Source: a virus. From it: a stretch of 64,000 nt of DNA. The stretch is from positions 18,179 to 82,178 of the IMG/VR virus record IMGVR_UViG_3300012017_000779, one strand, 5' to 3'. A program made the translations under genes and the position numbers. Numbering within the stretch: the first letter of the stretch is position 1; every line of letters begins with the position of its first letter. Of the stretch, positions 1 to 33,152 are shown piece by piece. Under the pieces are notes generated by a model. The model was not told the origin of the DNA. It saw only the letters and a program-made list of their open reading frames with translations, and did no database searches.

Positions 1-3000
1 CCCGGTATCTTGATCAATTAAATCATAGTTAAAGTTTTTATTTAACTTCCATGTACTTACACCTACTGTAAAAGTTATTGGAGGTTTACCAGTAGCTATA
101 AAAAGACTTTCATAAACTTCTCTAGCTTCATTAAGTCCTTCAAGTTCTTTTTTAATAGGAGCACTAGTAGATGGTTGAGACCAATCATATTTATTAATTA
201 AATAATCTAAAGCTGTAGCATGAGACGGTTCTCCAAGTTCTGCATAATATTGAAGTTGTCTTCCTTTTAATTTACCTGATTTTAAAACATCTAGAATAAA
301 TGCTTTTCTTTTTGGTTTAACATCTTTAAATTTATCAGTAGTTAACCAATCAATATAATTTATAACTGCTTCTTTAGTAGTATTAGTTTTTATAGTACCT
401 GTTCTATTAAAAGAAGCCCAAGGATTACTAAAACTATTTACATCACTAACCACTTCCATAGTATAAACTCTATTGTTAGCTTTTGCTTCTTTTATATTAG
501 CATCCCTATCATATTTACCATCTTTAGTTTTAATGTTAGAAATAACTACATTTTTATTTTCTAATTGAGAATATATATCATTACTATTAACACTAGTAGA
601 TGATTGAGTAGCAAGTGCAGTTTTAAGTTGTGCTCTCCAATTAGTATCAGCCATATTAATAGTTGGTATACCTTTTCTTCTAGCCATTTCAACAGCTTGT
701 CCTGTTCCTCCTTTAGGTCTTAAAGGATCAGCTGTTTCTTTAGCATAGAATATTACAAAGTCTACTGGAGTATCAAGATTTTTACCAAATATTTGATTAG
801 TATTTCTAGCCATTAAATTAGCTACAAATGCAGCAGATCTTTCAGGATCATTTCCTTTTGTTATAGCTTTTTTTCTAGTGCTATCTAACATTACATTCCA
901 AGCAGGATGAATTTCTTCTGCTATTTTAAGTTCTTTTTCTCCAGTTTTTACACTACCAATAAATATTTCTTTTAAAGATGTTACACCTTTTTCAAATGCA
1001 GCATCTGCACCAGCTGCTCCACCACTTCTTAATGTATATCCTAAAGACTCTAAATATTTAGCAACTTCTGGCATAACATCAAGAACTTCTTGTGGAGTTT
1101 CTCTAGATCCTATACCTGCATAAGTCATAGTAGGTGTAGTAGATTTACTAGGAAGAGAATCAAATACAGGTCTATCACCTGATACAGGTGGTTGAGTAGG
1201 TTGACCAGTAGTAATTTTATAACCAGTTTTTAAATCAACATTTTCAATAACAATTTCACCTCCATCTTTATCTACTAAATTATATAAATTATTTTTTTGT
1301 AAAATCCATGATGTACTATGTGGTGCTTTTTCATTTTTTCCTGTTTGTGAATTATAAAATTCTTTAAAAAATGTAGAAGGAGTAAAAAATTCTTTAGGTT
1401 TAACACCATTAGATTTTTCTAAATATGTATTATATGCAGCAATATCATCATCTGATATAATTTTAGTTTTAATAATATTTTCTTCATTTTCTAAATCAAA
1501 TTCTATTTCTATGCCATCATCAATATCTTTTTTAACAGGATTGTTATATTGATCTGCATTTTCAGTATATTCAATAAACTGTCTATTTTTTACATCTATT
1601 ACTTTACTAAAAATATTATTTAAAGTAACAAAAGAAAAATCTTTACTTTCTAAATCATTAATAAAAAATGTTGATGCATCAATCATTTCATCTGTAAATT
1701 TTTTAGCATCTAGAACTCTATTGATACTTAATTTACTATTTCCAAAACCATGTTGATAAAAAAGAATTAATGAAAAAGGTTTAAAAAATTCTAAAGATTT
1801 TTTATCTTTATTTATTGTAGGATCTGCTAGATCTTTTAAGTTTTTATTATAAATAGAAGATATTTCTTTAGTTAATAAAGATTTGTTATTTAAACTTAAT
1901 ACTTTATTTATATTTCTTTTATTACTTTTTAAAACTATATGATTTAAAACTGGAAAATTTACTTTTGTATCATCAAAGTTATTTATAATATTCATTATAC
2001 TTTCTGAATATGAATATTTAGTTTTTCCCATTATGTATGGAGAATTAAAACTTTTTAATAAAGCAACTTCAGATAAGTATTCTTCAGTTACTTCAGTATC
2101 AATTAAAGAATCTCTTAGTACTTCTCTTTCCATTACATATCTTACATAACTTGAAAATGTTTGAAATGGATTTTTATTTTTTTCAAACACATCTAAAGCA
2201 TCATCATTTAAAAATATTTTATTATCAAAATCTGATTTTAATTTTTCTTCATTTACAATTATATTTTTTCCAACAATTACATCTTGTTGTATTGTATTAT
2301 CAATTATAACATTTTTAGAACTTAAAGCTTTAGGAATAGTTATATGTTTTCCATTTACTGGATCAGTAAAATTAGACATATAGTTTTGATATATATAATC
2401 TACCACAGCATTATTATATGATGAAGTAAAATATTCTTCACCTTTAACACCTTTACCAAATTTTCTTGTAATTCTAGCTCTTTCTTTTAATAACTTTTCA
2501 GAAATAAAAGAAGAAATATTTTTATCTAATCTTAATTTAAATAAAGGTTTGATTAAATCAATCATTAATGCATCCTGATTAAAAGATGAAAGCAAAGAAT
2601 CTTTCATTAAAGCAGTAAGAAACTCTTGATCTATTTTAGAATTTCTTTTTAATTTATCAAAAAGTTCTATTCTTTTTATAACTTGTTGTAATGTAGTAAG
2701 TTTACTAGTATCTGGTGCATAAATCATTTGCAATGTTTCCAGACCTTCATATTGTTTTTCTAGTTCAATAAAATTTAAAAATAAAGCCAAAGATTTTAAA
2801 GATGCATCATTATTCATTGATTCTTTTAAATCAGATATGTTAATATCATCTTTAAATAATTCTTTAGATAAAACTTCTGATAAATAAACATAGTTGTTAC
2901 TAAAATCATAAGTTTTAGTTTTATTATCAAGAATTTTATTTTCAAGACTTTTTACTATATCATATACAACTTCATTATTATTACTTTTAATGCTGATAAT

Positions 3001-6000
3001 ATTTAATGGATTAATTTTTTTATTATTTAATCCTTTTATTAATTCATTTAAAGTATAATAAAATGATTGTTTTTTATTATCTTTTATTAAATATTCATCA
3101 TCAGCAGGATATATTTTTTCTAAAGACTTTATTGTAGTTCTTAATTTTAATAATGTAACACTATTAATAACTCTTTGTAATTCATCTGGTGCTAAAGTAT
3201 TTAAAATTTTATTGCTTATTTCTGATGCAATATTATATTTATTACTTTTTTCAAATTGAGCATCTGTAGAAATTAATGGATTTAAAGAACTATTTTCTAA
3301 TCTTTGTTTAAAAAAGTATTCTCTAATTAAAGGTTGAGTTACAAAATAAAAAACTTCTTCTTCATCTACACCTGCTTGCATTAAATAACTTATTACACCT
3401 ATTCCTTCAGGAGTTAGTTGTAAAACAAAAGGGAAAGAATTTTTTGCTCTATCTAAAATACCGTTAAGCATGTGTGAATTAAGATCTGTAATTCTATTTC
3501 CTTTTTGAGACTTATTACCTGATATAGAAATTACTTCATCACCATTTTTTGATTTTATAATGTTGTGTTTAAATCTTATAATAAAAGGAATGTCAATTAA
3601 ACCATCTTCAAATTCACGTAAATTTTTATTAAAAACAGAGTTTTTATATGACTTTGGCATCTTAGCACCCAACATTTTAAAGAGCACATGATTCTTTGTA
3701 TTTTTAGCTTGTATTCCTAATGAAGGTTCTAAAGATAAATTAGCAGCAAACTTGTATAAATTATAGATATAATCATAATTTCTTGAAGGACTTATAATTT
3801 CTTTTTTTCCATCTGCACTTTTATTTTTTTCACCAACTTTACTATCAGTATGAGAAACATTATCTAATCTATTATACTCATTTACAATATTATTTTCTAA
3901 AGATTTACTATATTTTTCTACTAAATATGTTAAATTAGGTTTTGTAAGTATTGCAAAGTTTTCAGGAAGAGTTAAAATATCTAAACTTATTTTAATGTAT
4001 TGATTTTGTAAATACTTTTCTTGCTGTTTAATTAATTTATTAGATGTTAATGCACCTAATTCAAGTGTACCAGTAAACTCTTTATCTTTTGTTTCTTTTA
4101 ATATTTTATTAAAGTTTTTTATTGGAGTATTTATATAATTACCTTCTATATCAATATTAGGCATACTCATAAATAATTTATCACCATCATAATCAGAACC
4201 TGATTTAGCAACTATTTCTGTTGGAACAATAATAGCATTACCATAACTTTCATCTAGAAAATGCCATACCTCAGCTCCTTCAATTGTACTTAATGCATCA
4301 TTAGGAATCCTTGGACCATATAAAGATATTGAAAGTCTATTTTTTTCTAACCAAGCATCATCTTTAATTAATTCATTTAATCTTGTTATAGTACCAATTT
4401 TATTACCTTGTAAGTCATTTCCATTTAAAAGATTAATAAAGTCTCCTTGCAATGCAATAGCTACTTTCATTAAACCTGTTCTACCATTTTTATTTCGTAT
4501 GTAAGAAGGCAGTGTATTTGTACCTAATACTTTTTTAATTTCAGAAACTTTAGTAATTGTTTTATATTGAGTATTCCAAAGTCCATTTGTAAATGTAGAA
4601 GCAGCTTGAGTTAAAGGTTCACCATTAATTGTTTGTTTAATTAATCTTGATTGAACAATACTCATTATAAGTTTTTCAATTGTTTGAGCTTCAGGATGTA
4701 TAGAAAAATCCATAGATGCAGCATTACCTTTTTTAGTTGCATTTAATAATCTAATTAAATGGTCAGGCACATCTCTTTCATCTAAGTTATCTCTGATAAT
4801 TTTTATAAACTTTGAAAAATCACCATTGCTTACATATTTTCCATCTTTTTCAGTAAAACCAATTTCATTAAGTAATTTTAATTTAAGTAATGCACTATAG
4901 TCATTTACTATTTTACTATAACTATCTAATGTTTTTTTATTTTTTGGATTAATTAACTCTCCATTATCATATAATGTGTCTGTTAATATTACTCTTGTTT
5001 GTGTAGCAATTGGAAGACTTCCTTTAAAGGTGTCATTAATGACTGTAACTTCTTTTAAGTTAGCAAGGTATACTGGATTAATAGTAAATGTAAAATCATC
5101 ACTGATGCCAGTATTTTCAGTTTTATCTTCAAAAATATCATCAGTTTCTTTATTACTAGTAAGTTCAGAACCTTTTGAACCTGATTTAAAAGTTACATAC
5201 TGAACATTATCTTTTAACATTTTAAGATGCAACTTATATAGTTCAGATCCTTCTTTTGCATTCACTCCTGGTATTAAAGGACTAACAGCAAATTTATGCA
5301 TAGCAATTGCTGGCAAATACTTATTTTTTATAGCACCAAATAAATGTAACTTATATATAGGAAAAAATTGTTTAACTGTATTTGGATCAATAGTTTCTCC
5401 TTTAACAATTTTTTGATATAAACTTTCTTGCTCCATTGACCAGCCTCTTCCACTTACTTTATGTAATATTCTATAGGCATCAATAGTCATAAAAGCCATA
5501 CCATCACTTTCAACTATTTTTTCATAAGCTTCTCTATCTTCTTTGATTCTTTCTTCAGTCTCTGCTTCACTAAAAGTTTTTAAATAATCTTCTCTCCAAG
5601 CTTCAACTAAATCATCTATATAAATAGATTCTCTTGTAGCATCTTTAATAACTCCTGTATTTATTACTTCACTAAATACATATTTATTATAATCTATATT
5701 ATCTTTACTTAAGCTTTTGTTAAGTTCAGAAGCATAAGTAGCATTTGTTTCTGTAGGTTTGTTAAATGTGTTATTAATAAAATTAATAGTTCCTTCATCA
5801 AATAAAAATCTAATACCATCAGAAGTACCACCTGGTATTCTTTTAGTCCAATCTTCTTTTGAATGATCCCATTGAGCTATATCTCCAAATAATAAAGTTG
5901 AGGTTTCAAATTTATATATCCAATCATTATATAAAAAAGCTTTTAATAATACATCAGATAATTCTTCATTTTCATTAAGCATATTTAAGTCAGCTTGATT

Positions 6001-9000
6001 ATTGACCTCCATACCAAGTTTTTTATATATACCTTTTGAGAATATATTTTTTTCTTTAATAGGATTATAATAATATTTTTTAAGCTCACTTACTTTATCA
6101 TTAAAATATTTTTTAATTTCATTTTGAATATTATTTTTTAAATCTGCATTATCTTTTTGTTTTAAAAGTTCAAGTAATGTTGATATTGTATCTTCTTTAA
6201 CAGCTAACTTATATAATTCATTTTTAGTTTTATCAGATAATAAATTATCAAATGCTGAAAATACTTCACCTGCATAAACATCTTTTCCTTTTACTTTTTT
6301 TACTACTTGATTAAATCCACTTATTTTTAATAATTCATCTCTATCAGGACCTTTGAATTTTTTTATTCTATCAAATTCACTTTCTATATATTTTAATAGA
6401 TAACCTTCAATAGCATATGTTTCACCAGTATTTTCTTGAAAAGTAAACATTATTGGATCAACAAAAATATTATCATCAGTTCCTTTTGTTCCATCTGCAA
6501 GAGTTGGTTTAAGTAAACCTCCTTTCACTGTTAAACCAAAAGACATCTTCTTATCTGCTGTTCTTCCTAACTCAGCTTTACCATTAAGAAGCATCATATT
6601 AATATCCTGTATAAATTTACTAAAAGGGTCTAATTTAGTAGTTATTGTTCCTGAACCATCCATTTCAGAAGTACCATCTATTACAATTAAATTTAAATTT
6701 TTGCCTTTAATTTTAACTTTATCAATACCAAATAAACTCTGAAACATTACAAGATTCTTAGTAAAAGCATTTATTTTTGGATCTAAAAAATTCATGTGAT
6801 TAAGAATAGGATTTTTACCATTCCATAATTCATCTTGTTTAGATACAGAATTTATTGCATATAAGTTATTTGTAACTGAACTTGCATTCATTGTTTCATA
6901 TGCAACATTACCATCAGCTCTAATTACAGCATTAGTTGAACTATCAAATCCATATTGAGATTGAAGTTTTGCTAAATTTTTTATTTGTGTATTTTGTTTA
7001 ATAACATTTACTTTATCTATCTCTGGTAAAATATTTTTAGGAATTTCTTCTTTTAATATTTTTATTGGATTTTCTTTAAAGTCTTTTATATATTTTTTTT
7101 GTAAAGCTGTTTTTTGTGGAAGTTTATCAACATTATTAAAGGCATTTAAAATTCTAAATATATATTTTAATCCATAAGGTGTAGAATTATTTTTTAATTC
7201 ATCTTTAATATTATTATTATTGGCTAATCCTATTCCTATGGCATTTGCAAATTCTAATTGTTTATTAATATCAAGTTCATTTTCTTTTGTTTGTTTAAAT
7301 TCACTAACAACTTTATCTAAATTTAAATTAGGGACATTAGCTACAACATCTATAAACTCATTATAAATACTTAAACTATTAAATTCAGATATCCATTTCT
7401 CAATAATAGAAGAAGTTTCCATAGAAAGTTCAATTACTTGAAAGTTTACAGTTTCATCACGGGATGCAACTAATTGTACATATTTAACATTAGGTTTTCC
7501 AAAATCATTAAAAAATGATACACTTAAGTCATACTCAAAAGTATTTGTAGTGTTAGGTTCAGGATATTTTTCTTCAAAGAATTGTTTTAATTCTGGATAT
7601 TTTTTATATTCTTTTTCTAATTTTTTATATGCTTCATCTCTATCTGATATATTACCAATTATTGCATATAACATATTAAATATATCTGAAAAATCAGCTC
7701 TTTCTTTAAATCCAAATCTATCAACAGGTGTGCTAATATCTCCATTTTTGTTTCTAACAACTTTAAATAAAGATTTTATTACATATATAGTTTCTTTAGA
7801 TAACATGTCCTGAAGTGATATTTTTCCAGGTACAGCATCTATTGTTAATTCATCAACTCCTTCTTCTTGTTCTGTTTCTTCTTTTGCATCTACTGCAATA
7901 TCATATACTTTTTTTGAAGTTTTAAAATCACTATTTTCTGAATGATATTTAATTACACCTGACCCTTTACTTCCCCAGTTATCAAGTGTTGTTTGTAGTA
8001 TTCTTATATTATCAAGTATAACAGATTGTTCCGGACTTAAAACAGTTTCTGATATAGAATCAGTAATTAATTCTGTATAATTTTCAGTTACACCTTCTAT
8101 TTTATTAAATTTTTCTTGTTCTTTCTTAAGTTTATCTTCTAGAATTTTTTTAGTTTCTCTATACAAATATTCTTTTTGTTCAATACCTTTTAAAAATAAA
8201 ACATTAGCTGCTTTTAAATTTTGTTTTCCAGCTGCTTTTCTTTTATTATATATGTCACTTAATAGTTCAGCCCATATATTATCTATTGTCATGGTTACTT
8301 CTAAAGAATCTTGATTACTTAATATATCTATAGAAGGATTATTAACTTTTCTAATTCCACGGTCAAGTTCATATAAAATAGCATTTTCTATTAAAGGTTT
8401 ATAACTATTAATCTCTCCTATATATAACTTATTAAATAAGTCTTTTGCCATAGGAGAATTCATGCTATCAACAAGTATATCTTTTTTAGAAAAAACATTT
8501 AGTTTACCAAATAATGCTTTTAAAAAATTAAGCATTTTTCTAAACAAAGTATTTTTAACTGGTGTCTCAGGACTTGGCTTTTGATTTTTAGCATAGTTTC
8601 TAAAATCTTCAGCTAACATTTCTTCTAACTCTAAATAAGATTTATTTATATTTGGTTTATTCCCTTTTGAATCAGTATAATTTCTTAATTCAGTATATAA
8701 TTTAATTTTATCTTGAGGAGTCAAAAACAATTGTGAAAATATATGCCATGCTTCATGATACAAAGTAAGATTTTGGAATATATCTCCTTGTTTTCTATTT
8801 ACTGCTATAGTTGCTAAACTTCCATCTGGATTAGCTATTTTACTTGCATTAACTATAAATGTTGCATAAACATCTGAATTAACTAAGTTAAACACTTGTT
8901 TAAAAGAAATTACTTTTCTTAATGGTTCAAGTGCTTTACTATTCCACCAAGTATTGATATCTTCAAGTTGTTCTTGAGTTATTTTTTCTTTTTTAAATCC

Positions 9001-11208: not shown

Positions 11209-14200
11209 TATTGACAGTTTTTAATTTTGGTTAATAAATCATCTTCAATTTTTGTAATATTATCTTTTAATCCTATTTCAGTTGCTTTATTTTTATCTTC
11301 AGTAGAATTTATAAAAGTATCAGTAGTATTTTGTACTTCTTTTAAAATAGTTTTTTCAGACTCATTTGCTTCATAAGTACTTTCTTCAGATTTTAAATTT
11401 TCAATATCTTCAGAAGTTAAATAAAGGTCTTTATTTAATAAATCTTTTGTATTAACAATTGATTCTTTAGAATTTTTTCTATTTCCTTTTATAGTAATTT
11501 TATCTCCATCAACTTTCATAACTGTAACTTGTGTATAATCTTTATTATTTTTAAAATATCTTGAATTAACTTCTATAGGACTAACAAATTCTTCTTTAAC
11601 TTCACCATATAAAGATAGTAAATTATCTTTTAAATTAGTTAACTTTTCAATACTTCCTAGAATATTCTTTTTTTGAAAATCAATTTTTGCATATTGTAGT
11701 TTATTTGTTAATTTTAAAATTTCATTAGTTAATAAAGAATTATAATTTGTCTTATTTAAATTGCCAAGTACATTAACTGTATCTTGTAAATTCATATGAA
11801 AAGAAGATTGACCCATATAAGAAAATAATGTTTTTTGATATACTTTAAATTCTTGTGCATTAGAAGTATCATTTGCAATTAAATATTCAATTCTTATTAC
11901 AGCATTATGAATAAGTTCAGAAACTTCTGCCATATTTAAATCTTGAGATTCTATTGATTGATATTCTACATCAGTAATAATTTTAGTAGCATTTAAAATT
12001 TTAGCTGCCATTAATTGATTTTCATGAGGAGGTTTTGTACTATCTTCAAATGATTTATGTTTATCATAATAATTTTTAAACTTATTATCTCCATCTTCAG
12101 ATACTTTAAGTCTGTCAGCAATAAAAGCATTACTAATTGCTATATTTGAAATATCAGGTATAGTAATTGATTTTAATATATTTTCTAACTTATCTAAAGA
12201 TATTTGACTATTTTCTAAATCTTTTTTATAACTGTTAATAATAACTGCATTCTTATTTTTTAAAAGTTGTACTTCTTGTGATGTTTGTTTTATATCAGGA
12301 CTTTCAAAAGAAAAAGATTGAGCTCCTTCATCATCTTTAGGTGCTAATAAATCATCTATTTCTTCCGCAACACTTTCTAATGAAAGAGGAATAAATACAT
12401 CATTAATTGCATTATTAGGACCTGTTTTAAATATTTTTTCTTCAAAGTCTTTATCACCTTTAGGATCTTTAAACTTATTTTTCTTTACTTTACCATCATC
12501 ATCAAATTCATAAATTACTTCTTTTGCTAAACCTGCTGCTAATGGTTTTTTAGCAGAAATAATTTGATCTGTTTCTTTATCAGATTCTCTTTCTATTGGC
12601 AATAATCCTATTTCTGTTTCAACACCAGTTTGTCTTTTTAATAACTCTCTATACACTGCTTGTTGTAAAGTATATTCATTTCTTTTTGAATATTTTTTAT
12701 TATCAAAACTATTTGTTAGTGAATTAAAATTTGTCCATTTACTTTTAGAACCTGTTTTGATATCTATAATAAATGCATTACCTTTTTTATCAACTACAAT
12801 TAAATCTATTTCTCCAGCAATTCTATCTTTTTTACCTTCTTCAGTAACAATATTAGAATCCCAAACAACTAAATTATTACCTACAATATAGTAACCTTCA
12901 TCTTTAAATTTCTTACCTAGTTGAACTATATATCCAGTATCATCATTAAATAATTCTTCATATGCTTTTTTAGAAATTATTTTTTCATCAAACTCAGGTT
13001 TTTTTCCATATTGAAAATAATCTTTAATTAAATCTACATAGTTACCGGCAACTCTTCCATCTTCATAAGATTTTTCTGATATTAAATTTAATACTTTGTC
13101 AAAAAGTTCTTCATTGTTTATATCAGTTTCAACAGTTGTATCTAAAGCAGCTAGTTCTGTATTATTAATTGTAAATATTGCAAATCTACCATCTTCTTTT
13201 ACTTTTGTTAATAATCCTTTATCAACAGCTTTATTATGCATTTTAATAGCACCTTCACCAGCAGATTCAGTTTTTAATGTTTTAACACCTTTTGCTTTTA
13301 AGTATCTTATTAAAGTTTCAAACATTTTTGAACCTTGCCCTTTACCAACTTCATTAGCAGATATACCATCTATTCTAAATTCTGTAGGTGAAATCATTAC
13401 TCCACTAATAAGACCATCTTTAGTTTTAAATTGATATAAATCCCCATTAATTACAATATTATTAATAGTTCCAATTTCAATTTTTGAAATTTCTGGAGTT
13501 CCTAAATATTCTATATCAGCTTTAGTATCTGTAGTACCTAAAGCAGTTAGTTTTGCAGTTAAAGTTTTTAAGTCTGCATTTAAAGTTTTAACTCTATCTT
13601 TATTTTTTGCTTTTTTAGATAATGCAATATCTTCTTTTAAAGATTTAATTTGGTTATTTAAAGATTCAATTTTATTATTTACTACATTAGATGTTATAAA
13701 AGATTTTATATCTTTAGATAACTCAGTAAATAATTTATCATTAATACCTGATGCACCACCATCTTTTAAAAGTTTAATAAAGGCATCTACAGAAGCTTCA
13801 TTAAGACCATTTTTTCTAATAGTATCATCATATGATTTTTCTACTAGTTTATAACTACTATATTCATATTTTTCTAAATAAGCTTGTATAGCATTAGTAA
13901 CACGTCTGTGTACTAAGTTATCTATTAAATAGGCTTTATCTCCTTTTTTAAGACCTGTTACCGGGTCATCTTCAGTTAGTACATAATCTTTTTGAACTGA
14001 TTTATTTAATGCTATAAGTTTTTCTATTTCTTTAATTACCTTTTTTTGAGGAGTTGTTCTTTCCTGTAAACTTCTAGACTTATTAACTTTAAGTAATTTT
14101 TTTGTTTCTTCACTTAAAGTTTCAATTTCTAATTTTTTAATATTATAATTAGGATCATCTTCTTTAAGTTTAGATAATTCTTCTCTTAATTTATTTAATT

Positions 14201-21210: not shown

Positions 21211-21231
21211 AATTTATCTTTATCTATATTG

Positions 21232-21263
21232 TAAATATATTAAAATTTTATAAGTTTAATAAA
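21232..21263 (-). promoter_or_regulatory. Putative promoter TTTA-N20-TATATTTA upstream of 21210
   Basis: One of six intergenic copies with near-constant spacing; overlapped by the inverted repeat AAGTTTA-A-TAAACTT. Confidence 0.65.
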
Positions 21264-21281
21264 CTTTAAAAATTTAGTTGG

Positions 21282-23930: not shown

Positions 23931-23940
23931 AATTAATTAT

Positions 23941-26900
23941 TTATAAAAATTCAACTTGTCCACCTTCTGCCATAAAAGCTCTAATTTGATCTTCAGACAT
24001 GTATGTTATTTTTTCACCACCCTCAGCATAAGTTAATTCATCTTCTTCATCTTCTTCTGTATAAGGATCATAATATTCTTCTTCATCTATGTATCCACCA
24101 TATTGTGCAGATCTACTGTTCCACATTTGACCTTGTTCATCAGGTCTATATAATCCTGAATTAGTATCATAATCTCCTTTATCTCTACTAGGATCAGAAG
24201 CATAAAGATTATTAGAACTTAAGTTTTCATACATTTCATTTTCTTTTTTTCTACTTTCTATATTTTTTCTTATACCATCTATAACATCTACACCTGCATT
24301 AAATGTTTGTAGTCTTGCTTCATTTTTTGATGTATCAGCATTAGCACCAAAAGCAAGGTCTTTTTTATTTTCTACATCAACAGCATACATATCATTAAAG
24401 GATGGTTTATCTTCATTTATTTGAAGATTTCCACTTTTATCTTTTATAACTCCAGGTTTTTCACCAGTCAATGGATTTCTATAATCTTTATCTATTACTC
24501 CTGGTTGTTTTATATCTTGAATATTATTTCCAAAGTCAGATCCTGTAGATCTTTTTTTAACAACTTTACCCATAAAATCTACACAATCTCCAGCTGCATT
24601 TTTAGTAGAACCCATTGGACATTCTCCTGGACTCATAGAAGTTTGAAAACCATCTTCTGCTCTAGGAAGAAACATATCTAAATTACCACCATATTGCATT
24701 TCAGTATTTCTTGGTCCTGATGTATTAATTAATTGATCAGATGAAAAAGGAATTCCTTGTAATTCTTTTGATTGAGTATTTCTTAATTGATTCATTGTAT
24801 CCTGATTAGATTTAATATCTAATCTTCCTGTATTACGATAAGGATGATCTAAAGGAAAATCTGCATAAGGATCATATTTTTTAATTGGCTTACCACCTAT
24901 TGGATTACCATATTCATCTAAACCTTGCATTCTAAGTTTTAAATTATTTATAAAACCATAACCTTGTCTTCCAGATCTTTGATTTTTATTATTTTCTCTA
25001 GTATCTTCAGGATAATTATCTCTAACTGGTTTTTTTGCACCTTGACAATTTGGTGAATTAGGAAAATCTAAACAATATCTATCACGACCTCTTTGAGAAG
25101 CATCAGTACCTTTTGATGTAGTAATAGGTTGACCAGATTGACCATTAAAATACATAGTATATTTTTTTGGTCTACCTGACCAGAATCTAGTTTTATCTAC
25201 ATTTATACTAGATAAGTTACCCATATTAATAGGCATAACAATTGTCTTTCCTGTTCTTGGATCATAAACTCTTTGAATTTCATTTCTATAAGTTCTTTGT
25301 GGACTTAATATATTTCCGGGAAAATAATTTTCAATAAATTTTCTAACTCCACCACCTCTTTGAAAATAAGGATCAGTTGTATCTATAGAATTTGAATAAT
25401 CCATATCTTGTTGAGTAGGATCATAACCACCTTGATTAAATTCATATAAATCAGGATTCTCACTATCTACAAAACCTCCATTTTCAAGATTAGGATCAAA
25501 AAATCTTCCAAGTCTTTCCATAAATGATGGATCTCTATAATAATAATCAGATTTCTTTTTTGTTTTTTTAGTAGTAGTTTTCTTTTTATTAGTAGTTGTA
25601 AATTTAGGAATTTGATTTTCAGGAATTATAACTTTATTTTTTTTAATTTCTATTAAAGTAGGAGAAGAATTTCTTTTTACTTCTGGTTTATAAACACTAC
25701 TTATTATTGGTGTATTTGCTACAGTTGCATTTGGATTAACTGTTGCTTGTGTAATTACTTCTTTAGAAGTACCCGTTGGTAAAGTTGAAAATTTTCCTGG
25801 TTGTAAATAATCAGGTATTTTATCACTATTAGCATCTGTTGTAAAAAAACCATGAGGTAAAAGTGTACCTTGTTTTGGTAAGTCTGTACTTTGAGATTTA
25901 TTTATTATAGTTGCAACAGTACTTGACACTGTACTTTGTGAAGATTTAACAACAGGTTTTTGTGATACTACATCTGGATTATTTCCATTAGCAATATCTA
26001 CAAGTGGAGAATATCCATAAAAATCTATTCTATATTTACTTGGTTTTCCTGTTAACCAATTTGATTTTCTAACATCTACACTATAAGAAGGATGATCATA
26101 AGAATGCATTTCATTATTGCTATTTTCATTTCTTCTTGGAAAACAATTTGTTTGTCCATTTTCATCTTCAAAACATGTATTGTTTCTTTCATTAAATTGT
26201 CCTTTAACAGCATAATCAGTTGCATCTACATAACCATCTTTATTATAATCTCCTTCTTCAAATGTTGTTGTAGGATAATCATTAACATTAAAATAATCTA
26301 TATTATCTTCTCTATCTCTTCTATTTTGACCTGTTATAAAATCTTTTAATTGGTTTGCTCTATATTTCAACTCATTACCACGAACAACTTTAGGATCTCT
26401 TGAACCTGCAGAACCACCTCTTCTCATCATATCATTTTGAGGTTGCATTTGTTGTTGCATCATTTGATCATATTCTTGTTCAGCTTGTTGTTTTAAGTTA
26501 AACATTTCTGTTTCTTTCTTTAAACTACTTATAAAATTATTTAGTTTTTGTTTTCTAATTTTTTTACCAGTAGGATCTCCTGCTTCAGGATCTTCATCAG
26601 ATTTTTTTTCTTCACCACCTTCTGCTTTTTTTGCTAATTTTAAAATAGAATTAACATAAACTCTTTTATTTCTTTTATAATTTCCTCCCATTTTCATTTC
26701 AGGAGGTGCATCTAAAGCATATTCACTAGATACATCAGATTCTTCTTCTTCTTCTTCAGAATTATCTTCATTTTCATATTCACTATTTTGATTTATATCT
26801 TTACTAGCATAATGATTATAATACATTCCTGTTGCAGGATCTACAGTTCCATTTAACATATCTGCCATATTATATGGTAAATAAGTTTCTATTTCTGGAA

Positions 26901-27909
26901 ATACTATACCAGGAGCAGTAGGATTAAAAGGATATGTAACTTGACCATTTTGTTGTATTTCTGTATCAACATCTTCTACTTCTTCTCCATCTTGAGCTTT
27001 ATAAAGTCCACCATAAGCCATTTGTCCACCATACTTTTCTTCATCATCATCTTCCTCTTCTTCTTCATCTTCATCTTCATTTAATAACATATCAGATACA
27101 AAACTATTATTTTGAGTATCTTCAGCAGCATCTACTTCTTCTTGTGATTCATAAGGCTCTTCTTCAACAACTTCTTCTTCAACAACTTCTTTTTCATCTT
27201 CATCTTCATCAAAATCATATTCATAATCAGAACCATTTTGTTCAGTTAAATAATTTTTTACTTGACTTACTAAATTTATAGCTTCCATTGGATCTACATC
27301 ATAAAAGTTTGCTAATTTAAAAGCAATCTGTTGTTCATCAATATCATTATTTAAGTCATTAGAAATTATATTAACTAATTCATCTTGTGATAAATCTTTT
27401 TTTTCTTCTGAATTAGAACCAGGATAACCCATTTCACTAACATCAGGTACTCCACCTAATTGATATTTAGGAAAAGTACCATTTTTAATACGTTGTAAAG
27501 CATTATACTGACTTTGTGTTGCTAAATTATTATTTTTTATTACAGCTTCTATTATTTTTTCATGATACTTTCTAGTTGATGGACTTATATTAGATATATT
27601 TAATACATCTTGAAAAAATGCTGGATTTTTTATTTGAATTTTTGATGATGCTGTAGTTGCTTTTTTAATTCCTTCACCATATTTAATAGCTCCTGCAGCT
27701 CTAGCTGCATTATTAGATTTGTCTATAGCTTTTGCTAGTTCAGTTGCCTTTTGTATTTTATCAGATTCATCAAAATTCATAATAAGTTGTTTTCCATATT
27801 TTAAAACATCTTTTACAATTCTTCCTTTTTGAGCTTTTTCTAAAAACTGACCTGTCTTATTAAGATACTTACCATTTCCATCAGGTGATTTATAAATTCT
27901 AACTTTCAT
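23941..27909 (-). CDS. Acidic, low-complexity internal protein (1322 aa) punctuated by xxxxGG motifs
   Basis: ORF track; Glu/Asp tracts, many GG motifs and an internally duplicated module. Confidence 0.65.
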   Translation of the reverse strand: MKVRIYKSPDGNGKYLNKTGQFLEKAQKGRIVKDVLKYGKQLIMNFDESDKIQKATELAKAIDKSNNAARAAGAIKYGEGIKKATTASSKIQIKNPAFFQDVLNISNISPSTRKYHEKIIEAVIKNNNLATQSQYNALQRIKNGTFPKYQLGGVPDVSEMGYPGSNSEEKKDLSQDELVNIISNDLNNDIDEQQIAFKLANFYDVDPMEAINLVSQVKNYLTEQNGSDYEYDFDEDEDEKEVVEEEVVEEEPYESQEEVDAAEDTQNNSFVSDMLLNEDEDEEEEEDDDEEKYGGQMAYGGLYKAQDGEEVEDVDTEIQQNGQVTYPFNPTAPGIVFPEIETYLPYNMADMLNGTVDPATGMYYNHYASKDINQNSEYENEDNSEEEEEESDVSSEYALDAPPEMKMGGNYKRNKRVYVNSILKLAKKAEGGEEKKSDEDPEAGDPTGKKIRKQKLNNFISSLKKETEMFNLKQQAEQEYDQMMQQQMQPQNDMMRRGGSAGSRDPKVVRGNELKYRANQLKDFITGQNRRDREDNIDYFNVNDYPTTTFEEGDYNKDGYVDATDYAVKGQFNERNNTCFEDENGQTNCFPRRNENSNNEMHSYDHPSYSVDVRKSNWLTGKPSKYRIDFYGYSPLVDIANGNNPDVVSQKPVVKSSQSTVSSTVATIINKSQSTDLPKQGTLLPHGFFTTDANSDKIPDYLQPGKFSTLPTGTSKEVITQATVNPNATVANTPIISSVYKPEVKRNSSPTLIEIKKNKVIIPENQIPKFTTTNKKKTTTKKTKKKSDYYYRDPSFMERLGRFFDPNLENGGFVDSENPDLYEFNQGGYDPTQQDMDYSNSIDTTDPYFQRGGGVRKFIENYFPGNILSPQRTYRNEIQRVYDPRTGKTIVMPINMGNLSSINVDKTRFWSGRPKKYTMYFNGQSGQPITTSKGTDASQRGRDRYCLDFPNSPNCQGAKKPVRDNYPEDTRENNKNQRSGRQGYGFINNLKLRMQGLDEYGNPIGGKPIKKYDPYADFPLDHPYRNTGRLDIKSNQDTMNQLRNTQSKELQGIPFSSDQLINTSGPRNTEMQYGGNLDMFLPRAEDGFQTSMSPGECPMGSTKNAAGDCVDFMGKVVKKRSTGSDFGNNIQDIKQPGVIDKDYRNPLTGEKPGVIKDKSGNLQINEDKPSFNDMYAVDVENKKDLAFGANADTSKNEARLQTFNAGVDVIDGIRKNIESRKKENEMYENLSSNNLYASDPSRDKGDYDTNSGLYRPDEQGQMWNSRSAQYGGYIDEEEYYDPYTEEDEEDELTYAEGGEKITYMSEDQIRAFMAEGGQVEFL

Positions 27910-27926
27910 AACTACATATTATATAT

Positions 27927-27958
27927 TTAATATACTAAATTTTAATTTATTCAATAAA
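27927..27958 (-). promoter_or_regulatory. Putative promoter TTTA-N20-TATATTAA upstream of 27909
   Basis: Shares tatatatttaatatactaaa exactly with the 40997 site; the palindrome TAAACTTA-A-TAAGTTTA (27955-27971) overlaps it. Confidence 0.7.
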
Positions 27959-27968
27959 CTTAATAAGT

Positions 27969-30900
27969 TTAATTAATACCTTTTGCTTTCATATAATTTA
28001 AAATACGTTTGTATTGATTATAAGTAATATCAGGTTTTGTTTCAAGACCTTTTTCATTAGCATGTTTTTTTATATAGGCATTTCTAATTTGCTCATGTGT
28101 AATAATACTTTTTAAATTTAAATTATATTTTTTTGCAATTGGAGCATAATACTCTACAAATGAAATAACTTGTTGATCAGTTAATGGTTTTTTTTGTGTA
28201 TCTCCTTGAAATTCTACACCAATACTAAAATCATTAACATCTTCTCTTCCATTCCATTTTGATTTTCCTGCATGAAAAGAAACTTGTTCAGGAGATGCAT
28301 ATATAGTTCTAGAACCATCTTCTTCAATAACTACGTGAGAAGAATTTTGTCCAGGTGTCATAAATTGTTTTTTTACTTCAGCATTATTAGTAATAGGATC
28401 ATTATAAGCAGTATGATGTAATACAAAGTTTTTAATTTCATTTTTTAATTTATGACCAGCTTTATAACTGTCATCTTTTTTTGTTCTTACATTAGGCATA
28501 TCATATACATACGTTTCTTTAAATTTGTTAACAGGAACATTATATTTTTTTATATATAAACCATTACCTCCAGAAGTATTTTCAGCATCATAATTAACCA
28601 ACCTTTGTTTAGTTAACTTACCATCTTTATAAGAAAGACCTCTTGCATATGTTCCATTATCAAGACTCCATGCTTCAAGATATTTACTGTTTCCTTTTAA
28701 TCTTTTAAATTCTTTTTTAATATGAGAAACACTTCCTGATACCAATGTTTGTTCTTTTGTTGTAGGATTAACAAAAACAACTCTACCTCCTAAAATAGAA
28801 CCATAATAATCTTCTTCTGCTTTACCTTTTTTTGTTAAAATATTTAAAGCACCTTTTTTAAGTTTATTATTTTCTAATATTGTTATTTGAGGTTGCCAAA
28901 ATTTTGGATTTCCAGATCTTGCTCCATCTAAAGATATGTCATCAATAGAAACAATTTTATTCATAAATGTTTTAGAAAATTTCCAATCTTTATTATTTTT
29001 TAAATTTTTATAAATACCAGTATGTAATACTCCTTTGTTATCTAAAGCAAATACACTATTATCATCATTTATACCATTTACATTTGTTTTTTTATTATAA
29101 GGTTTTATATTAGCTGCCTTACTAAATGGATGAAATGTTGTAAATTCTAATCCATCAGATTCTATATCTTGATATTGACCTCTATTTCTACTACCTAAAA
29201 CTAAGTTAGATGTTGGAACAGTTTGTTGTTTAAACTGTCTATTTGGTTGATCATTTACATTTAATATAGTTTGTGATAAAGTTGGATTTTTATAATAATC
29301 TTTTACATTTATAGGTTCAGGTGATTCTATAACTTTTTTATCTTTAGTTTCTACTATACCCCAAGTTTGAAGTTTACGGTCTAAACCATTATTAAAAAGT
29401 TTTTTTTGATTATCCAACCAGTTATCAAAACTTTTTATTTCTTTATAAGTTGATTCAAAAAATGAATCTTCTGGTTTAACAATTTTATTTTTTATATTAG
29501 AATTATTATTTTTAGTTATTTGTAAACTATTTTTAATAGGTTCAACTTTACTTATATTTTTTTCTTTTAAAATATTTTCTTTTGCAATGTTTTGCAATTT
29601 ATTTTTTAAATCTAATTCAAAATTAGATTTAGTTTCAATAGTAGGTATTTTTCTAATAGTTTTTTTTATAGGTTCAGTTGTTTGTTTATATTTTTTTATA
29701 TTTTTATCATCAACTTTTTCATAAGCTATATCATCAATATCTTCCATACCAAAAAATCTTTTAAATCTTTCTGTATATGTAGGATCTCTTGTATAATCAT
29801 AAGATTTACCTTTTTTATTAAAACCACCATTTTGATAATTATCTATTTCCTCTACTATATAACCACCTTCTTTATATCTTTGTACTTCTTCTGGTGTTAG
29901 ATCTAATTCTACATAATCATTATTTTCTCCACCTTGTTTATATTGCCCTCTAAAACCTGTATTATAATCTTTTTTTAATTTTTCTAAATAGTTTTTATAT
30001 TCTATTTGTTTGTTTCTATCTAAATTTTTATAATCCATAAATGGATAAGTTTCATCAACATCAAACATTTTTTGACCTTTTTTTCCTACTACAGTATTTC
30101 TATCTAATAATATTGGTAAATCATAAGAATTATTAGGCATAAATTGAGAATTCCAATAACCATTATTAACTGCTAATTTATTCAATTTTCTACTTTTTAA
30201 ATTATGATATTTATTAAACCAATCTTGATAATTACCTGTACTATAATCTCTTGGTGAATGCAATTTAAACATATACTTTCCATAACCAGATGGTACGTCT
30301 GAAGTATATAAAGCATCTGCATAACTCATATCTGGCATACCTGATCTATAACCATATTGTTGCATAGGTACATGAGTAGCTTGATATTTAGCAATTGAAA
30401 TAGGATCATCAAAATTTACTCCTGCATTTTTCATATTTTCAAATTCAGATATTTTATTATTCCATGAAGGTTTTGACATATCATAAGGTCTATTAGTATA
30501 GTCCATAACTCCTTTACCATCTCTAGGTACTGAACCATCAACACCTCTAAATTTAGTTGCTTCTCTATTTAAAGCTAGTTTAGTTAACTTATTTGTTCTA
30601 TCTGTACTTCTAGCTGCATAATTTAAATCTTGAAAATCTTTACCTATAAGCTCTTCTTTTTGTAAGTTTTTAATAAATTGTCTTCTTGGTAAAAAACCAG
30701 AAATTTCTTTTAAATTTTTAGAAGAAAAATCATATTTAGAAAGGTCTATTTTAGGAGAACCTGATAATTGTTTAGGAACTCCTTTAAATCCTTTTATTAA
30801 ATTTTTAGATGCATTATAAGCAGGTTTAAAAACTTGTTTACCTAAACCTAATCCTAAAAAACCTAGTGCATTAACTCCTGTTTCAAAAGAAGCATCTCCT

Positions 30901-33152
30901 AAAGTATTCCATGAAGGATTATTAATAAAATTACTTTGAGATTTTACAACATCACTTTTTGAATCTCCTTGATTATAAAGAGCATCAGCTCCAAAATATG
31001 CTGCTACAGAATTACCAAGATTTAATTTACCTCCTGTTGCATCTGTAATTTTTTTACCTAATGGTAAAGGTGCTTTTACAGATGTTTTTGTTGCAGTCCA
31101 TAAAGGTTTTAACCATTTTCCTGCTTGTAAAACCATTTTTGGTGCACCTCCTATTCCTGTCATTGGAGAATCTTCAAAAGGAGATCTACCTTTAGGTTGT
31201 GGTTTATAATTACTTTCTGGAGCATCTGTAAATAGTCTATTTAAAATATTAGAATGTTCCCAGTCATCTTGTCTTTTATTAAATTGACCTACTGTTTCTT
31301 TAATACCTTCATTATTAGCAAGACCTTTCTTTATTTTACTATCTTCTTTTTCTTTTTGAATTGCTTTTTCTTTTTCTTCTGAACTTTTTTTAACAAAAGC
31401 TTGTATATTATTTTTATATTTAGGATCAAAAGACCAGTCTAAAGGTTTTTGATAAATATTATTTACTCTTGTATTATCAGAAGAATTAGATGAAACTTTA
31501 GACATACTATCATCAACAGGTTTAGCCATCTTATCTAAAACTGCTGTCCTAGCTTTAACATCTCCTTTATTTAAAGGTTGATATTTACCAGACCTATTCC
31601 AATCTACTTGCCACTTACCATTAACTTTTTTGTAATTACCCTTACTTCCTTTTACAGTGTATATACCACCATCTTGGTAATTATCTATTTCTTCTACTAC
31701 ATAACCACCTCTTCTATATTCTTCTATCTCATCTTCATCAAGATCAGCTTCTATAAATCCTGGAGAAACATCTTTATAATTTTCTGCAAAATAATTAGCA
31801 TCTTCATTTGAATCAAATCTTATAGCTTCATTAGATTCCGGACCATAGTCTCCAAGTTGTAGTACACCATTCTCATCTTGTATTTGTGGTACTGCATAAT
31901 TATCCATGCTTGCCATGTAATGAGAACCAGTATCTCCATTATCAAATTGATAAGGATTGTCTGGTAGGTTAATCATTCTTTCAGCAGCAGGGTTACCAAA
32001 CTCATTAGCATATGCTAGTCTAGCTTTCATCATACCAGTCATTGCATCTTTGTTACCACCATCTTGTTTTTTAGGAAACATAGATTTACCATCTTTTTCA
32101 AATTGTTCTTCACGGACTCTTGCTTCTCCTTCTTCTGTAGTTGGATCTTGATACATTAAAGCATTTGCACCTGGAAAACCTTCTGTAAATTCTTGTAATT
32201 TATTTCTTGGTATAAATTGTAAATTAGGATCAGCTTTGATCATTGCATCTGTTTGTGCTTCTAATTCAGTATTTCTTCTGTCATAGTAATTACTTATTGC
32301 TTGATCTGATGCTACAGTATTATTAGGTCTTTGACCTAAAAAACCAGCAGTACTTGCACCACCTCCTAAGTTTTGCAAATGGTGATACTTTTCATGTTCT
32401 GTCCACCAACCATTATTTTCTATTGATCCAGGTCTTGTATCTTGACTTATTTCACCTGTTGCTGCATTATATCCTGTATTCTCATCAGTTTCAATTACTT
32501 CTGGTTCTTGCCATTCTACACATTGACCATTATAAATAATATATCCTTCTGGACATTTTGATTCTCCACCATCTTGTGCATGTACTAATCCTTGACCACC
32601 ACACTCATGACATGTAGTAATATCTTTACCACCATCTTCAGCATCCCATTTCCAGCCACATTTTTTACATGTTACTTTTTTAGTAAGTAAAGCACCACCT
32701 TCTGCATAATACTTTGAGTTAGGATCAAATACTTTATTCTTTCTAGACTTAGGTTTTGCAAATAAAAAATTTTGTGTAAATAATTTATTAGTTGCACTAA
32801 GACTTCTTGAGTAACCTTTAGAATTTTTTTTATTAGGCATTTTTAAAACAGAACCACCTTTACGCATAAAATCTTCAGGTTGTTCTAACTCAGGTTGCAT
32901 TCTATAGTTAGTAGTAATTTCTTCTCCGGGTTTTAAATTTTTAGAAGCATAGATAAATCTTTTATTATCTATTTTTTTACTATAAGCTGTAGGATTTTTT
33001 TCATTATGATTATGATTTCTTCCAATTTCAGATGCGGGTTGATCATCAACATGAGCTAATCCAATTACCTCACCTTTTTTAAAAGGTGCTTTAGTAAATA
33101 AACCTTTACCAGCTCCTTTTATACTAGATTGTTTTGTTATATATTTTTTCAT
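27969..33152 (-). CDS. Modular polyprotein (1727 aa): SET domain, Zn ribbon, HExxH zincin, unknown modules, C-terminal N-acetylmuramoyl-L-alanine amidase (Amidase_2)
   Basis: SET: GAGKGLFT...NHNEKNPT...GEEITTNY. Zn ribbon: CKKC..CHEC. Zincin: HEKYH (32382-32396)...EGEAR. Amidase: VLHHTA...SSHVVI...FHAG...SIGVEF...ITHEQI...KPD. Confidence 0.85.
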   Translation of the reverse strand: MKKYITKQSSIKGAGKGLFTKAPFKKGEVIGLAHVDDQPASEIGRNHNHNEKNPTAYSKKIDNKRFIYASKNLKPGEEITTNYRMQPELEQPEDFMRKGGSVLKMPNKKNSKGYSRSLSATNKLFTQNFLFAKPKSRKNKVFDPNSKYYAEGGALLTKKVTCKKCGWKWDAEDGGKDITTCHECGGQGLVHAQDGGESKCPEGYIIYNGQCVEWQEPEVIETDENTGYNAATGEISQDTRPGSIENNGWWTEHEKYHHLQNLGGGASTAGFLGQRPNNTVASDQAISNYYDRRNTELEAQTDAMIKADPNLQFIPRNKLQEFTEGFPGANALMYQDPTTEEGEARVREEQFEKDGKSMFPKKQDGGNKDAMTGMMKARLAYANEFGNPAAERMINLPDNPYQFDNGDTGSHYMASMDNYAVPQIQDENGVLQLGDYGPESNEAIRFDSNEDANYFAENYKDVSPGFIEADLDEDEIEEYRRGGYVVEEIDNYQDGGIYTVKGSKGNYKKVNGKWQVDWNRSGKYQPLNKGDVKARTAVLDKMAKPVDDSMSKVSSNSSDNTRVNNIYQKPLDWSFDPKYKNNIQAFVKKSSEEKEKAIQKEKEDSKIKKGLANNEGIKETVGQFNKRQDDWEHSNILNRLFTDAPESNYKPQPKGRSPFEDSPMTGIGGAPKMVLQAGKWLKPLWTATKTSVKAPLPLGKKITDATGGKLNLGNSVAAYFGADALYNQGDSKSDVVKSQSNFINNPSWNTLGDASFETGVNALGFLGLGLGKQVFKPAYNASKNLIKGFKGVPKQLSGSPKIDLSKYDFSSKNLKEISGFLPRRQFIKNLQKEELIGKDFQDLNYAARSTDRTNKLTKLALNREATKFRGVDGSVPRDGKGVMDYTNRPYDMSKPSWNNKISEFENMKNAGVNFDDPISIAKYQATHVPMQQYGYRSGMPDMSYADALYTSDVPSGYGKYMFKLHSPRDYSTGNYQDWFNKYHNLKSRKLNKLAVNNGYWNSQFMPNNSYDLPILLDRNTVVGKKGQKMFDVDETYPFMDYKNLDRNKQIEYKNYLEKLKKDYNTGFRGQYKQGGENNDYVELDLTPEEVQRYKEGGYIVEEIDNYQNGGFNKKGKSYDYTRDPTYTERFKRFFGMEDIDDIAYEKVDDKNIKKYKQTTEPIKKTIRKIPTIETKSNFELDLKNKLQNIAKENILKEKNISKVEPIKNSLQITKNNNSNIKNKIVKPEDSFFESTYKEIKSFDNWLDNQKKLFNNGLDRKLQTWGIVETKDKKVIESPEPINVKDYYKNPTLSQTILNVNDQPNRQFKQQTVPTSNLVLGSRNRGQYQDIESDGLEFTTFHPFSKAANIKPYNKKTNVNGINDDNSVFALDNKGVLHTGIYKNLKNNKDWKFSKTFMNKIVSIDDISLDGARSGNPKFWQPQITILENNKLKKGALNILTKKGKAEEDYYGSILGGRVVFVNPTTKEQTLVSGSVSHIKKEFKRLKGNSKYLEAWSLDNGTYARGLSYKDGKLTKQRLVNYDAENTSGGNGLYIKKYNVPVNKFKETYVYDMPNVRTKKDDSYKAGHKLKNEIKNFVLHHTAYNDPITNNAEVKKQFMTPGQNSSHVVIEEDGSRTIYASPEQVSFHAGKSKWNGREDVNDFSIGVEFQGDTQKKPLTDQQVISFVEYYAPIAKKYNLNLKSIITHEQIRNAYIKKHANEKGLETKPDITYNQYKRILNYMKAKGIN
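29823..31710. repeat. 46-bp direct repeats (29823-29868 and 31665-31710) encoding the linker GGY(V/I)VEEIDNYQ(D/N)GG
   Basis: 42/46 nt identical, 1842 bp apart and in frame. Confidence 0.85.

Follow-up and report, generated by a model that had tools for sequence, protein, structure and literature searches.

Are the enzyme domains of a phage's giant proteins exchanged one by one at the short in-frame repeats that border them? The question is raised by a stretch of viral DNA of 64,000 nucleotides (nt), positions 18,179 to 82,178 of IMG/VR record IMGVR_UViG_3300012017_000779 (the whole stretch is called the window in the following). Three of its giant proteins, a putative virion RNA polymerase (vRNAP) and two proteins of 2338 and 1727 amino acids (aa), contain modules that lie between direct repeats, and a reading of the sequence alone had proposed that the phage gains, loses or swaps injected enzymes at these repeats. 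Comparison with relatives leads us to conclude, at a probability that we put at roughly 0.85, that the first two are polyvalent proteins with fixed in-frame plug-in sockets, whose cassettes are exchanged at the joints. The proteins in question are:

1-11208, minus strand: vRNAP-like giant protein (relatives P0123-P0242); the last 85 codons of its 3821-aa gene lie before the window start
11211-18224, minus strand: 2338-aa protein of the cargo block, with a PD-(D/E)XK domain at 12528-12854
27972-33152, minus strand: 1727-aa mosaic protein with, from its N-terminus, a SET-like domain, a zinc ribbon, an HEKYH motif, unnamed modules and Amidase_2

Alleles of the two sockets

The vRNAP socket lies between the sequence ..IEIEFDLE and the tail PI[KR][KE]ELEGL...KLCQ, and a joint with the consensus P-T-Q-[PS]-[PS]-T-S-[VA] separates every cassette in it. 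The socket of the 2338-aa protein lies in mid-protein, and its joint consists of (A)ELAAL followed by a T/D-rich stretch. In the order of the protein, the parts of the vRNAP socket are:

1210-1488, minus strand: tail-like module (aa 3241-3333), a copy, since diverged, of the beginning of the conserved C-terminal tail
1186-1209, minus strand: linker L1, peptide TGQPTQPP, the left breakpoint of the segment replaced in the 98% relative described below
610-1185, minus strand: SLOG/DprA-like cassette (phrog_768); a contig without the cassette joins 611 to 1209 in frame
589-609, minus strand: linker L2, peptide TQSSTSV, the codon-fixed joint, with the 18-mer CTCAATCATCTACTAGTG on the coding strand
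181-588, minus strand: cassette X, DUF4326-like, found as near-identical DNA with both linkers in unrelated backbones
160-180, minus strand: linker L3, peptide SQPSTSA, the right breakpoint of the replaced segment
1-159, minus strand: start of the conserved 138-aa C-terminal tail (PIKKELEGL...KLCQ), kept in all alleles

Those of the 2338-aa socket are:

13509-13556, minus strand: left joint, peptide AKLTALGTTDTKADIE, at which relatives have their junctions
13161-13508, minus strand: GNAT-like cassette, swapped for other domains or missing in relatives
13119-13160, minus strand: right joint, peptide TELAALDTTVETDI, which bears the widespread AELAAL-type DNA joint

The virus IMGVR_UViG_3300042336_000548, the 98% relative, is colinear with the genome and 97-99% identical to it over 25 kilobases (kb), and contains two non-homologous replacements only, at window positions 180-1185 and 13166-13508. 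In the first, SLOG and X are replaced by an unrelated segment of 451 nt, whose breakpoints coincide with the outer linkers, that is with the first vRNAP repeat and its degenerate third copy; at its right junction the relative carries the middle linker of the window in 21 of 21 nt, followed directly by the conserved tail. In the second, the GNAT-like cassette has given way to an unrelated domain of about 125 aa flanked by two copies of AELAAL-G/D-T..D-I. Since phages that are 97-98% identical in DNA thus differ at both sockets and nowhere else, the cargo enzymes are the parts with the fastest turnover, as is expected of parts engaged in an arms race with the host. The expectation that relatives would differ in domain content with breakpoints on the repeats is thereby borne out at the vRNAP tail and in the 2338-aa protein, in DNA as well as in protein.

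Further alleles extend this picture. The vRNAP socket contains from zero to three cassettes, drawn from a repertoire of SLOG, DUF4326-like, NADAR, 2-oxoglutarate (2OG) oxygenase, ART-PolyVal, DUF7831 and unnamed domains, and its contents differ among backbones that are 86-97% identical:

P0133 and P0134: empty socket with a single linker
Several relatives: one cassette, which is an unnamed domain, a 2OG oxygenase, DUF7831 or another unnamed domain
P0125: SLOG only
P0123: SLOG and ART-PolyVal
The 98% relative: tail-like module and cassette Y
The window: tail-like module, SLOG and X

In other lineages X and SLOG stand in the opposite order. The tail-like module (36% identity with the tail over 53 aa, E 5e-8) is missing from relatives whose socket is empty or holds a single cassette. 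A scan of IMG/VR with the conserved vRNAP tail returned no relative beyond the one already known, one metagenome scan yielded three loci, tblastn with the tail found free-standing SLOG genes only, in many phages, and megablast of 20 kb against a phage collection gave no match.

The 2338-aa socket is highly polymorphic as well, with at least ten alleles in proteins that are 92-98% identical: empty, GNAT, the 125-aa domain, ART-PolyVal (locus L026) and at least six other unnamed inserts of 68 to about 240 aa. The empty alleles, of 2206 or 2207 aa, retain one copy of the joint and are shorter by exactly the 132-codon spacing of the repeats, and one of them is confirmed in DNA (locus L025). One homologue, P0036, stops at the socket after 1580 aa, which shows that the gene can also be split at this site. 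Transfer between the vRNAP and 2338-aa sockets was considered and dropped, as their ART cassettes are only 25% identical.

Variants without a cassette had been anticipated from the sequence and were found in lake metagenomes, whose Logan contigs we placed on window positions 1-15000; such contigs record the presence of a variant and not its frequency. GNAT is missing from one contig, which occurs in two runs and joins 13110 to 13516 with 12 nt in between (31 nt on the shorter side). SLOG is missing from another, in which 6 nt separate 611 from 1209 (41 nt on the shorter side). Both junctions are in frame and read through one linker; such cassette-less variants co-occur in the lake metagenomes. 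Other Logan joints with sides below 30 nt or spanning kilobases were left out, and coverage was thin in runs X9 and X12. A joint of 176 to 591 is not counted as a deletion, for it has 21 nt on one side and may belong to an allele with another cassette; a back-joint of 13533 to 13141 was uninterpretable and is not used.

Cassettes also move between lineages. Cassette X is 88-93% identical in protein across polymerases that are otherwise about 31% identical, and the DNA of X plus its two linkers (window 611-162) shows 96.7-98.5% identity at six IMG/VR loci whose flanks cannot be aligned. The DNA homology stops at the outer edges of the linkers. As judged from this comparison, X has been transferred horizontally. 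It is carried by 381 cluster representatives, standalone or embedded, and is found both free-standing (140-250 aa) and at many positions of other giant proteins.

The joint itself is conserved to the level of its codons. The 18-mer CTCAATCATCTACTAGTG occurs 33 times in 24 IMG/VR contigs, in 33 of 33 cases in frame as (T)QSSTS(V) within large open reading frames (ORFs), and at the loci found by way of the cassette protein 12 of 12 QSSTS linkers share one coding, for which codon usage gives a probability of 0.017 per instance. One relative has six TQSSTSV linkers, five of them with the exact 18-mer, which separate X, a 2OG oxygenase, an unnamed domain, NADAR and a Y-like domain; in the sequences examined, pairs of polymerase-type linkers enclose cassettes of at least 17 families. 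By these counts the vRNAP joint is codon-fixed across divergent phages. This linker (589-609) contains the palindrome ACTAGT, hence CTAG, and CTAG is likewise contained in the right-hand joint of the 2338-aa socket.

The AELAAL joint (GCAGAAYTAGCTGCTTTAR in DNA) looks like a second, widely used in-frame joint. Its 19-mer, with two degenerate positions, was found in at least 120 IMG/VR contigs (loci L089-L200) of 23-41% G+C, and 106 of 117 among the matches listed lie in ORFs of at least 500 aa; the joint was sampled by a DNA probe, by which codon fixation is not measured without bias. INAKYD often stands ahead of it, and a T/E/P/S-rich stretch and diverse domains come after it.

Chance, mechanism and other explanations

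How far would the window alone have carried this conclusion? The three repeat pairs hold in coordinates, identity counts and in-frame spacings: 162-179 and 591-608 in the vRNAP (17/18 identical, spacing 429 nt or 143 codons), 13138 and 13534 in the 2338-aa protein (19/22, 396 nt or 132 codons) and 29823 and 31665 in the 1727-aa protein (42/46, or 67/89 when extended; 1842 nt or 614 codons). The degenerate third vRNAP copy, TGQPTQPP at 1186-1209, is present as well. When codons were shuffled within each ORF and in-frame pairs counted, six 17/18 pairs observed in the vRNAP stood against 3.0 +/- 2.7 expected and six 19/22 pairs in the 2338-aa ORF against 5.95 +/- 2.0; only the 42/46 pair exceeded chance (one observed, none expected). 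The vRNAP linkers are alike in 18 of 21 nt, as compared to 12.9 +/- 2.0 predicted from peptide and codon usage (P 0.003). The window by itself is insufficient for a socket claim; it is the comparison with relatives that justifies it, and it is because of the relatives, not of window statistics, that the two short repeats are taken as real homologous joints.

Several observations weigh against exchange at dedicated joints. Both short repeats are no commoner than chance within the window, in such AT-rich ORFs, and the DNA likeness of the 2338-aa and 1727-aa repeats does not exceed what peptide and codon bias predict (P 0.05-0.14). A DNA probe made from the 35-aa motif of the 1727-aa protein, whose core is the long repeat, had no exact match in IMG/VR, i.e. 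this motif is not fixed in DNA. Ends of BLAST segments fall at most 12 aa from the four vRNAP linkers in 216 of 285 cases, against 17% expected, but these ends are not independent events, and their clustering at domain borders is expected of any multidomain family. The same proteins also vary without repeats: an insert of about 97 aa at vRNAP aa 1041 (about window 8085) is found in P0123-P0125 and P0130 and not in the window, and a block of 229 aa of the 2338-aa protein (aa 1963-2191, window 11650-12336) is absent in P0026-P0034. No recombinase could be tied to the joints; only a PD-(D/E)XK exonuclease and an HNH endonuclease gene were found, elsewhere in the genome, and neither shows a link to the joints. 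Pfam and PHROGs name neither cassette Y nor the 125-aa cassette nor most others. Finally, it is only by synteny with the cargo genes of phage crAss001 that packaging and ejection of the giant proteins can be suggested. A further candidate socket, at vRNAP aa 1022-1041, was rejected as a plain insert without repeats.

We propose the following mechanism. A socket would be a short joint sequence, and single-domain cassettes would sit between copies of it; a filled socket is therefore seen as direct repeats and an empty one as a single copy. Phages that meet in one host would recombine at the joints by homology-dependent exchange: deletion between two copies would remove the cassette and leave an empty site, crossovers in two joints would replace it, and a cassette that brings its own joint would be inserted, with the reading frame and the conserved C-terminal tail preserved in every case. 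Homology-dependent exchange would both require and produce the codon-level conservation of the polymerase joint. In the 1727-aa protein a like logic may operate with another joint, modules up- and downstream reassorting at a 35-aa motif conserved at the protein level. Within the first minutes of an infection, the cassettes would then act upon targets of the host or its defence.

But might the joints primarily be processing sites? The giant proteins would then be polyproteins that a phage protease (HEAWH zincin-like, or one cutting after Gly-Gly) cuts at the linkers, releasing the enzymes in the virion or the host, and borders would coincide with joints since each unit needs a site. We regard this as possible though doubtful, and it is compatible with exchange at the joints. 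Autoprocessing by an MPTase zincin domain has indeed been proposed for polyvalent proteins (PMC5512222), and the vRNAP contains the motif HEAWH, the 1727-aa protein HEKYH. It is as peptides that the 35-aa motif and the xGG punctuation are conserved, and 60 of the 233 instances of the motif lie at a C-terminus, as though internal copies stood for past or future protein ends. Selection at the peptide level, however, fails to explain why 12 of 12 linkers share a single coding or why the exact 18-mer is in frame in 33 of 33 cases. Moreover, the joints of the three proteins are unrelated to one another, none of these proteins has a peptidase match in Pfam, and the word stems 'cleav' and 'proteoly' are absent from the main text of the crAss001 structure paper (PMC10172136).

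Alternatively, the codon-fixed joints might be recognition sites of a dedicated phage-borne system, integron-like in its cassette exchange and acting on protein domains. The joint, which in the polymerase contains the ACTAGT palindrome, would be the place where a nuclease or recombinase cuts or pairs, each cassette would carry its own 3' joint, and the system would be common to many environmental phage lineages. We consider this unlikely.

Less likely still is ordinary turnover at domain boundaries, by which illegitimate recombination together with selection for in-frame breaks in flexible S/T/P/Q-rich linkers would produce the alleles, and the repeats would be by-products of linker composition and codon bias. 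The chance frequency of the repeats within the window, the repeat likeness in the 2338-aa and 1727-aa proteins that peptide and codon usage explain, and the repeat-free indels in the same proteins all fit such a process. It does not account for a joint that is codon-fixed across phages of 23-41% GC and polymerases about 31% identical, for empty sockets that keep exactly one joint copy, for the window's middle linker at the relative's right junction (21/21 nt), or for a transferred cassette whose DNA homology stops at the outer edge of each linker. That the alleles are assembly artefacts, contigs made chimeric by short repeats, is hardly credible: all the relatives come from metagenomes, repeats do cause assemblers to break or mis-join contigs, one Logan contig begins at the socket and the 176 to 591 joint has only 21 nt on one side, but identical alleles recur in independent sources (JGI, ENA, Logan, IMG/VR) on contigs of 10-120 kb, typical reads are longer than the repeats (18-42 nt), no junction breaks the frame, and the cassettes are coherent folded domains (X has a pLDDT of 90; matches to DUF7831, NADAR and 2OG fill the space between linkers).

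The 1727-aa protein and its 35-aa motif

Does exchange at joints, which we favour for the vRNAP tail and the 2338-aa protein, extend to the third protein? The sequence-only reading had treated the 614 codons between its repeats as one cassette, and here it did not stand: since near relatives vary only at about aa 786-1069, the block is not a single cassette. The relevant features are:

31665-31757, minus strand: 35-aa junction motif, subtype A (..IEADLDEDEIEEYRRGGYVVEEID..)
29946-30797, minus strand: variable part of the 614-codon block (about aa 786-1069), replaced or shortened in near relatives
29823-29915, minus strand: 35-aa junction motif, subtype B (..VELDLTPEEVQRYKEGGYIVEEID..), the protein end in many relatives

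The 46-bp repeat is the core of this motif, GG-[YF]-[IV]-E-x-D-L-[TD]-x-E-E-I-x-x-Y-[RK]-x-G-G-[YF]-[IV]-V-E-E-[IL]-D, which is present in 107 of 118 homologues with 233 instances, 60 of them at the very C-terminus, and which falls into two orthologous subtypes. Concerted evolution between the copies was rejected, given the orthologous subtypes and as no homogenisation was found. In relatives the borders between modules are concentrated at the motif and at shorter marks of the xGG type, and downstream blocks occur behind either subtype, which implies that crossovers occur in the motif. Its conservation as a peptide suggests that it probably has a function of its own, for instance as a docking, packaging or processing signal.

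Marks of the type [AQKE]-x-GG (AEGG, QDGG, KQGG) recur in the 882-, 1322- and 1727-aa proteins (window 21285-33152); those of the 1727-aa protein coincide with module borders of its relatives at about aa 100, 200, 363, 495 and 1070. The C-terminus of the 1322-aa protein is a weak copy of the 35-aa motif. The 1727-aa protein further contains the zinc ribbon at 32646-32669, HEKYH at 32382-32396 and Amidase_2 at 28086-28442.

The phage, its cargo enzymes and known systems

The source is an uncultured freshwater crAss-like phage (Crassvirales), an identity assigned because of Pfam matches to CrAss_Ring_1 (1.8e-8) and CrAss_Ring_2 (3.6e-23) at 38695-40409 and of PHROG matches to the portal, terminase (TerL) and major head protein (MCP), which lie on one strand upstream of the giant proteins. 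The sequence is present in 23 freshwater or lake metagenome runs, G+C of the window is about 25-30%, and all its large genes are on the minus strand. Tail genes are followed by a structural protein of 1845 aa, proteins of 1727, 1322, 882, 999 and 2338 aa and the giant DYDGD protein, which has 3821 aa in the 82-kb contig that contains the window and homologues of 2000-6200 aa. Its DYDGD metal motif at 4180-4194 (aa 2339-2343) is of the DxDxD type, whose catalytic role in crAss polymerases has been described (Yutin 2021, PMC7886860), and makes the protein a putative, vRNAP-like polymerase; a zincin-like HEAWH motif lies at 8743-8757. The crAss001 genes at corresponding positions code for cargo proteins and proteins associated with the polymerase, which mass spectrometry has shown to be present in virions (PMC10172136).

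The domain names given from the sequence alone fared unequally. SLOG/DprA-like (phrog_768, 1.3e-45 over aa 3360-3536; Pfam DNA_processg_A at 8e-4, below cut-off) and the N-acetylmuramoyl-L-alanine amidase Amidase_2 (PF01510, 1.6e-16, 61.3 bits, aa 1571-1689, above the gathering score) are solid assignments by family match. GNAT remains sub-threshold but consistent: the cassette matches PF00583 (Acetyltransf_1) with E 0.0063 and 17.2 bits, below the cut-off of 20.7, and the N-acetyltransferase PDB 4mbu with E 0.023 over the motif-A region, and it contains the motif VGKGQGS. The SET-like domain is likewise below its cut-off (PF00856, E 0.0066, 17.3 bits against 22.4), and several relatives have a precomputed PF00856 match. 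Cassette X of the window has no match to Pfam DUF4326 (PF14216), and Foldseek of X against PDB found nothing; of ten standalone homologues, four have sub-threshold DUF4326 matches (E 0.006-0.066), and about half of the top 50 BFVD neighbours of the predicted X model (pLDDT 90) are DUF4326 proteins (E 0.03-7, probability up to 0.97), while its best PDB match by VIA-align is NADAR, a weak one (Z 2.9). On fold and sub-threshold evidence X is thus best called DUF4326-like. The name zincin stands for the HEAWH (vRNAP) or HEKYH (1727-aa protein) motif alone, neither of which falls in a Pfam or PHROG family.

The cassettes of relatives include NADAR, DUF7831, 2OG-Fe(II) oxygenases of two kinds and ART-PolyVal (PF18760), the last in sockets of P0008/P0009 and P0123 and not in the alleles of the window. 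By their predicted identities the cassette domains represent NAD/ADP-ribose and nucleic-acid modification chemistry, as in polyvalent proteins (PMC5512222), and a role in counter-defence or host takeover is plausible.

Which known systems does this resemble? Polyvalent proteins of phages and conjugative elements (Iyer, Burroughs, Anand, de Souza and Aravind 2017, PMC5512222) are likewise giant and vary in architecture among relatives. They combine many enzyme domains of unrelated kinds, among them ART-PolyVal, GNAT, a virion RNA polymerase and a zincin-like peptidase motif, and are believed to accompany the DNA into the host. Here, too, each protein has at least two unrelated effector-type domains (polymerase, SLOG and X in the vRNAP, GNAT-like and PD-(D/E)XK in the 2338-aa protein, SET-like and amidase in the 1727-aa protein). 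Whereas that work described architectures, exchange is here traced to fixed sockets, which near-identical phages carry either empty or filled, and to joints that are repeated and partly codon-fixed; the word 'linker' occurs 0 times in the text of that work, which considers recombinational variability for a single kinase locus, and there as a possibility only. The variation of polyvalent architectures is known, with its origin left unresolved in the literature searched, and is here mapped to fixed in-frame sockets.

In polymorphic toxins a short conserved motif borders the variable part. These toxins (CdiA, Rhs and relatives; Zhang et al. 2012, PMC3482391) have a conserved carrier whose variable domains are replaced by cassette recombination, a likeness that extends to our proteins. 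The present sockets differ in that they are internal and followed by a conserved tail, can take several cassettes in series and belong to phage virion proteins instead of secreted bacterial toxins. No immunity gene or orphan cassette array was noticed beside the sockets in the loci read, in which no systematic search was made. Integron gene cassettes offer an analogy only: the units seem to bring their own 3' joint, and there are arrays with repeated joints and empty sites, but here the units are protein domains in one reading frame and the joints are translated. No integrase was present among the 28 ORFs scanned with PHROGs or Pfam, which are not all ORFs of the incomplete 82-kb contig.

Phage tail fibres, tailspikes and endolysins also swap domains at conserved borders between near relatives. 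Those swaps alter host recognition or lysis, whereas the parts exchanged here are internal cargo enzymes with a dedicated short-repeat joint. The crAss001 proteins gp45-gp50 (Bayfield et al. 2023, PMC10172136) are giant and encoded after the tail ring and muzzle genes, as here; no cassette sockets are described for them, and the likeness lies in synteny and the polymerase motif. In the literature searched, joints that are fixed, repeated and conserved in their codons are not described for the cargo proteins of crassviruses. The joints offer natural, frame-safe insertion points in such proteins, and it becomes testable which of the injected enzymes (NADAR, ART, 2OG oxygenase, SLOG) counter which defences, whether the short joints drive recombination, and whether cassette content tracks host or season in lakes.

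Some features lie apart from the sockets. The HNH endonuclease (phrog_1314, 4.8e-63) and the PD-(D/E)XK exonuclease (phrog_412 'exonuclease VIII'; PF12705) are part of the replication module outside the window (genome C1:5527-6711 and 9199-10206, locus L028), and a 424-aa gene directly ahead of the exonuclease matches no family. Ahead of the 1322-aa and the 999-aa gene lie the intergenic stretches 27920-27974 and 21225-21279, which match at 75% over 55 nt (repeat-scan family D15); a promoter or terminator region common to the two is a possible reading.

The vRNAP ends in ...KLCQ, with the stop just before the window start, and the 2338-aa protein in ...KNCQ (window 11211-11240); many free-standing homologues of cassette X (alignment A1) end in a helix followed by K-C-[KQNL]. 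Such an ending may be a shared C-terminal cargo or packaging signal, and if so, this would explain why the sockets are placed before a conserved tail and not at the very end.

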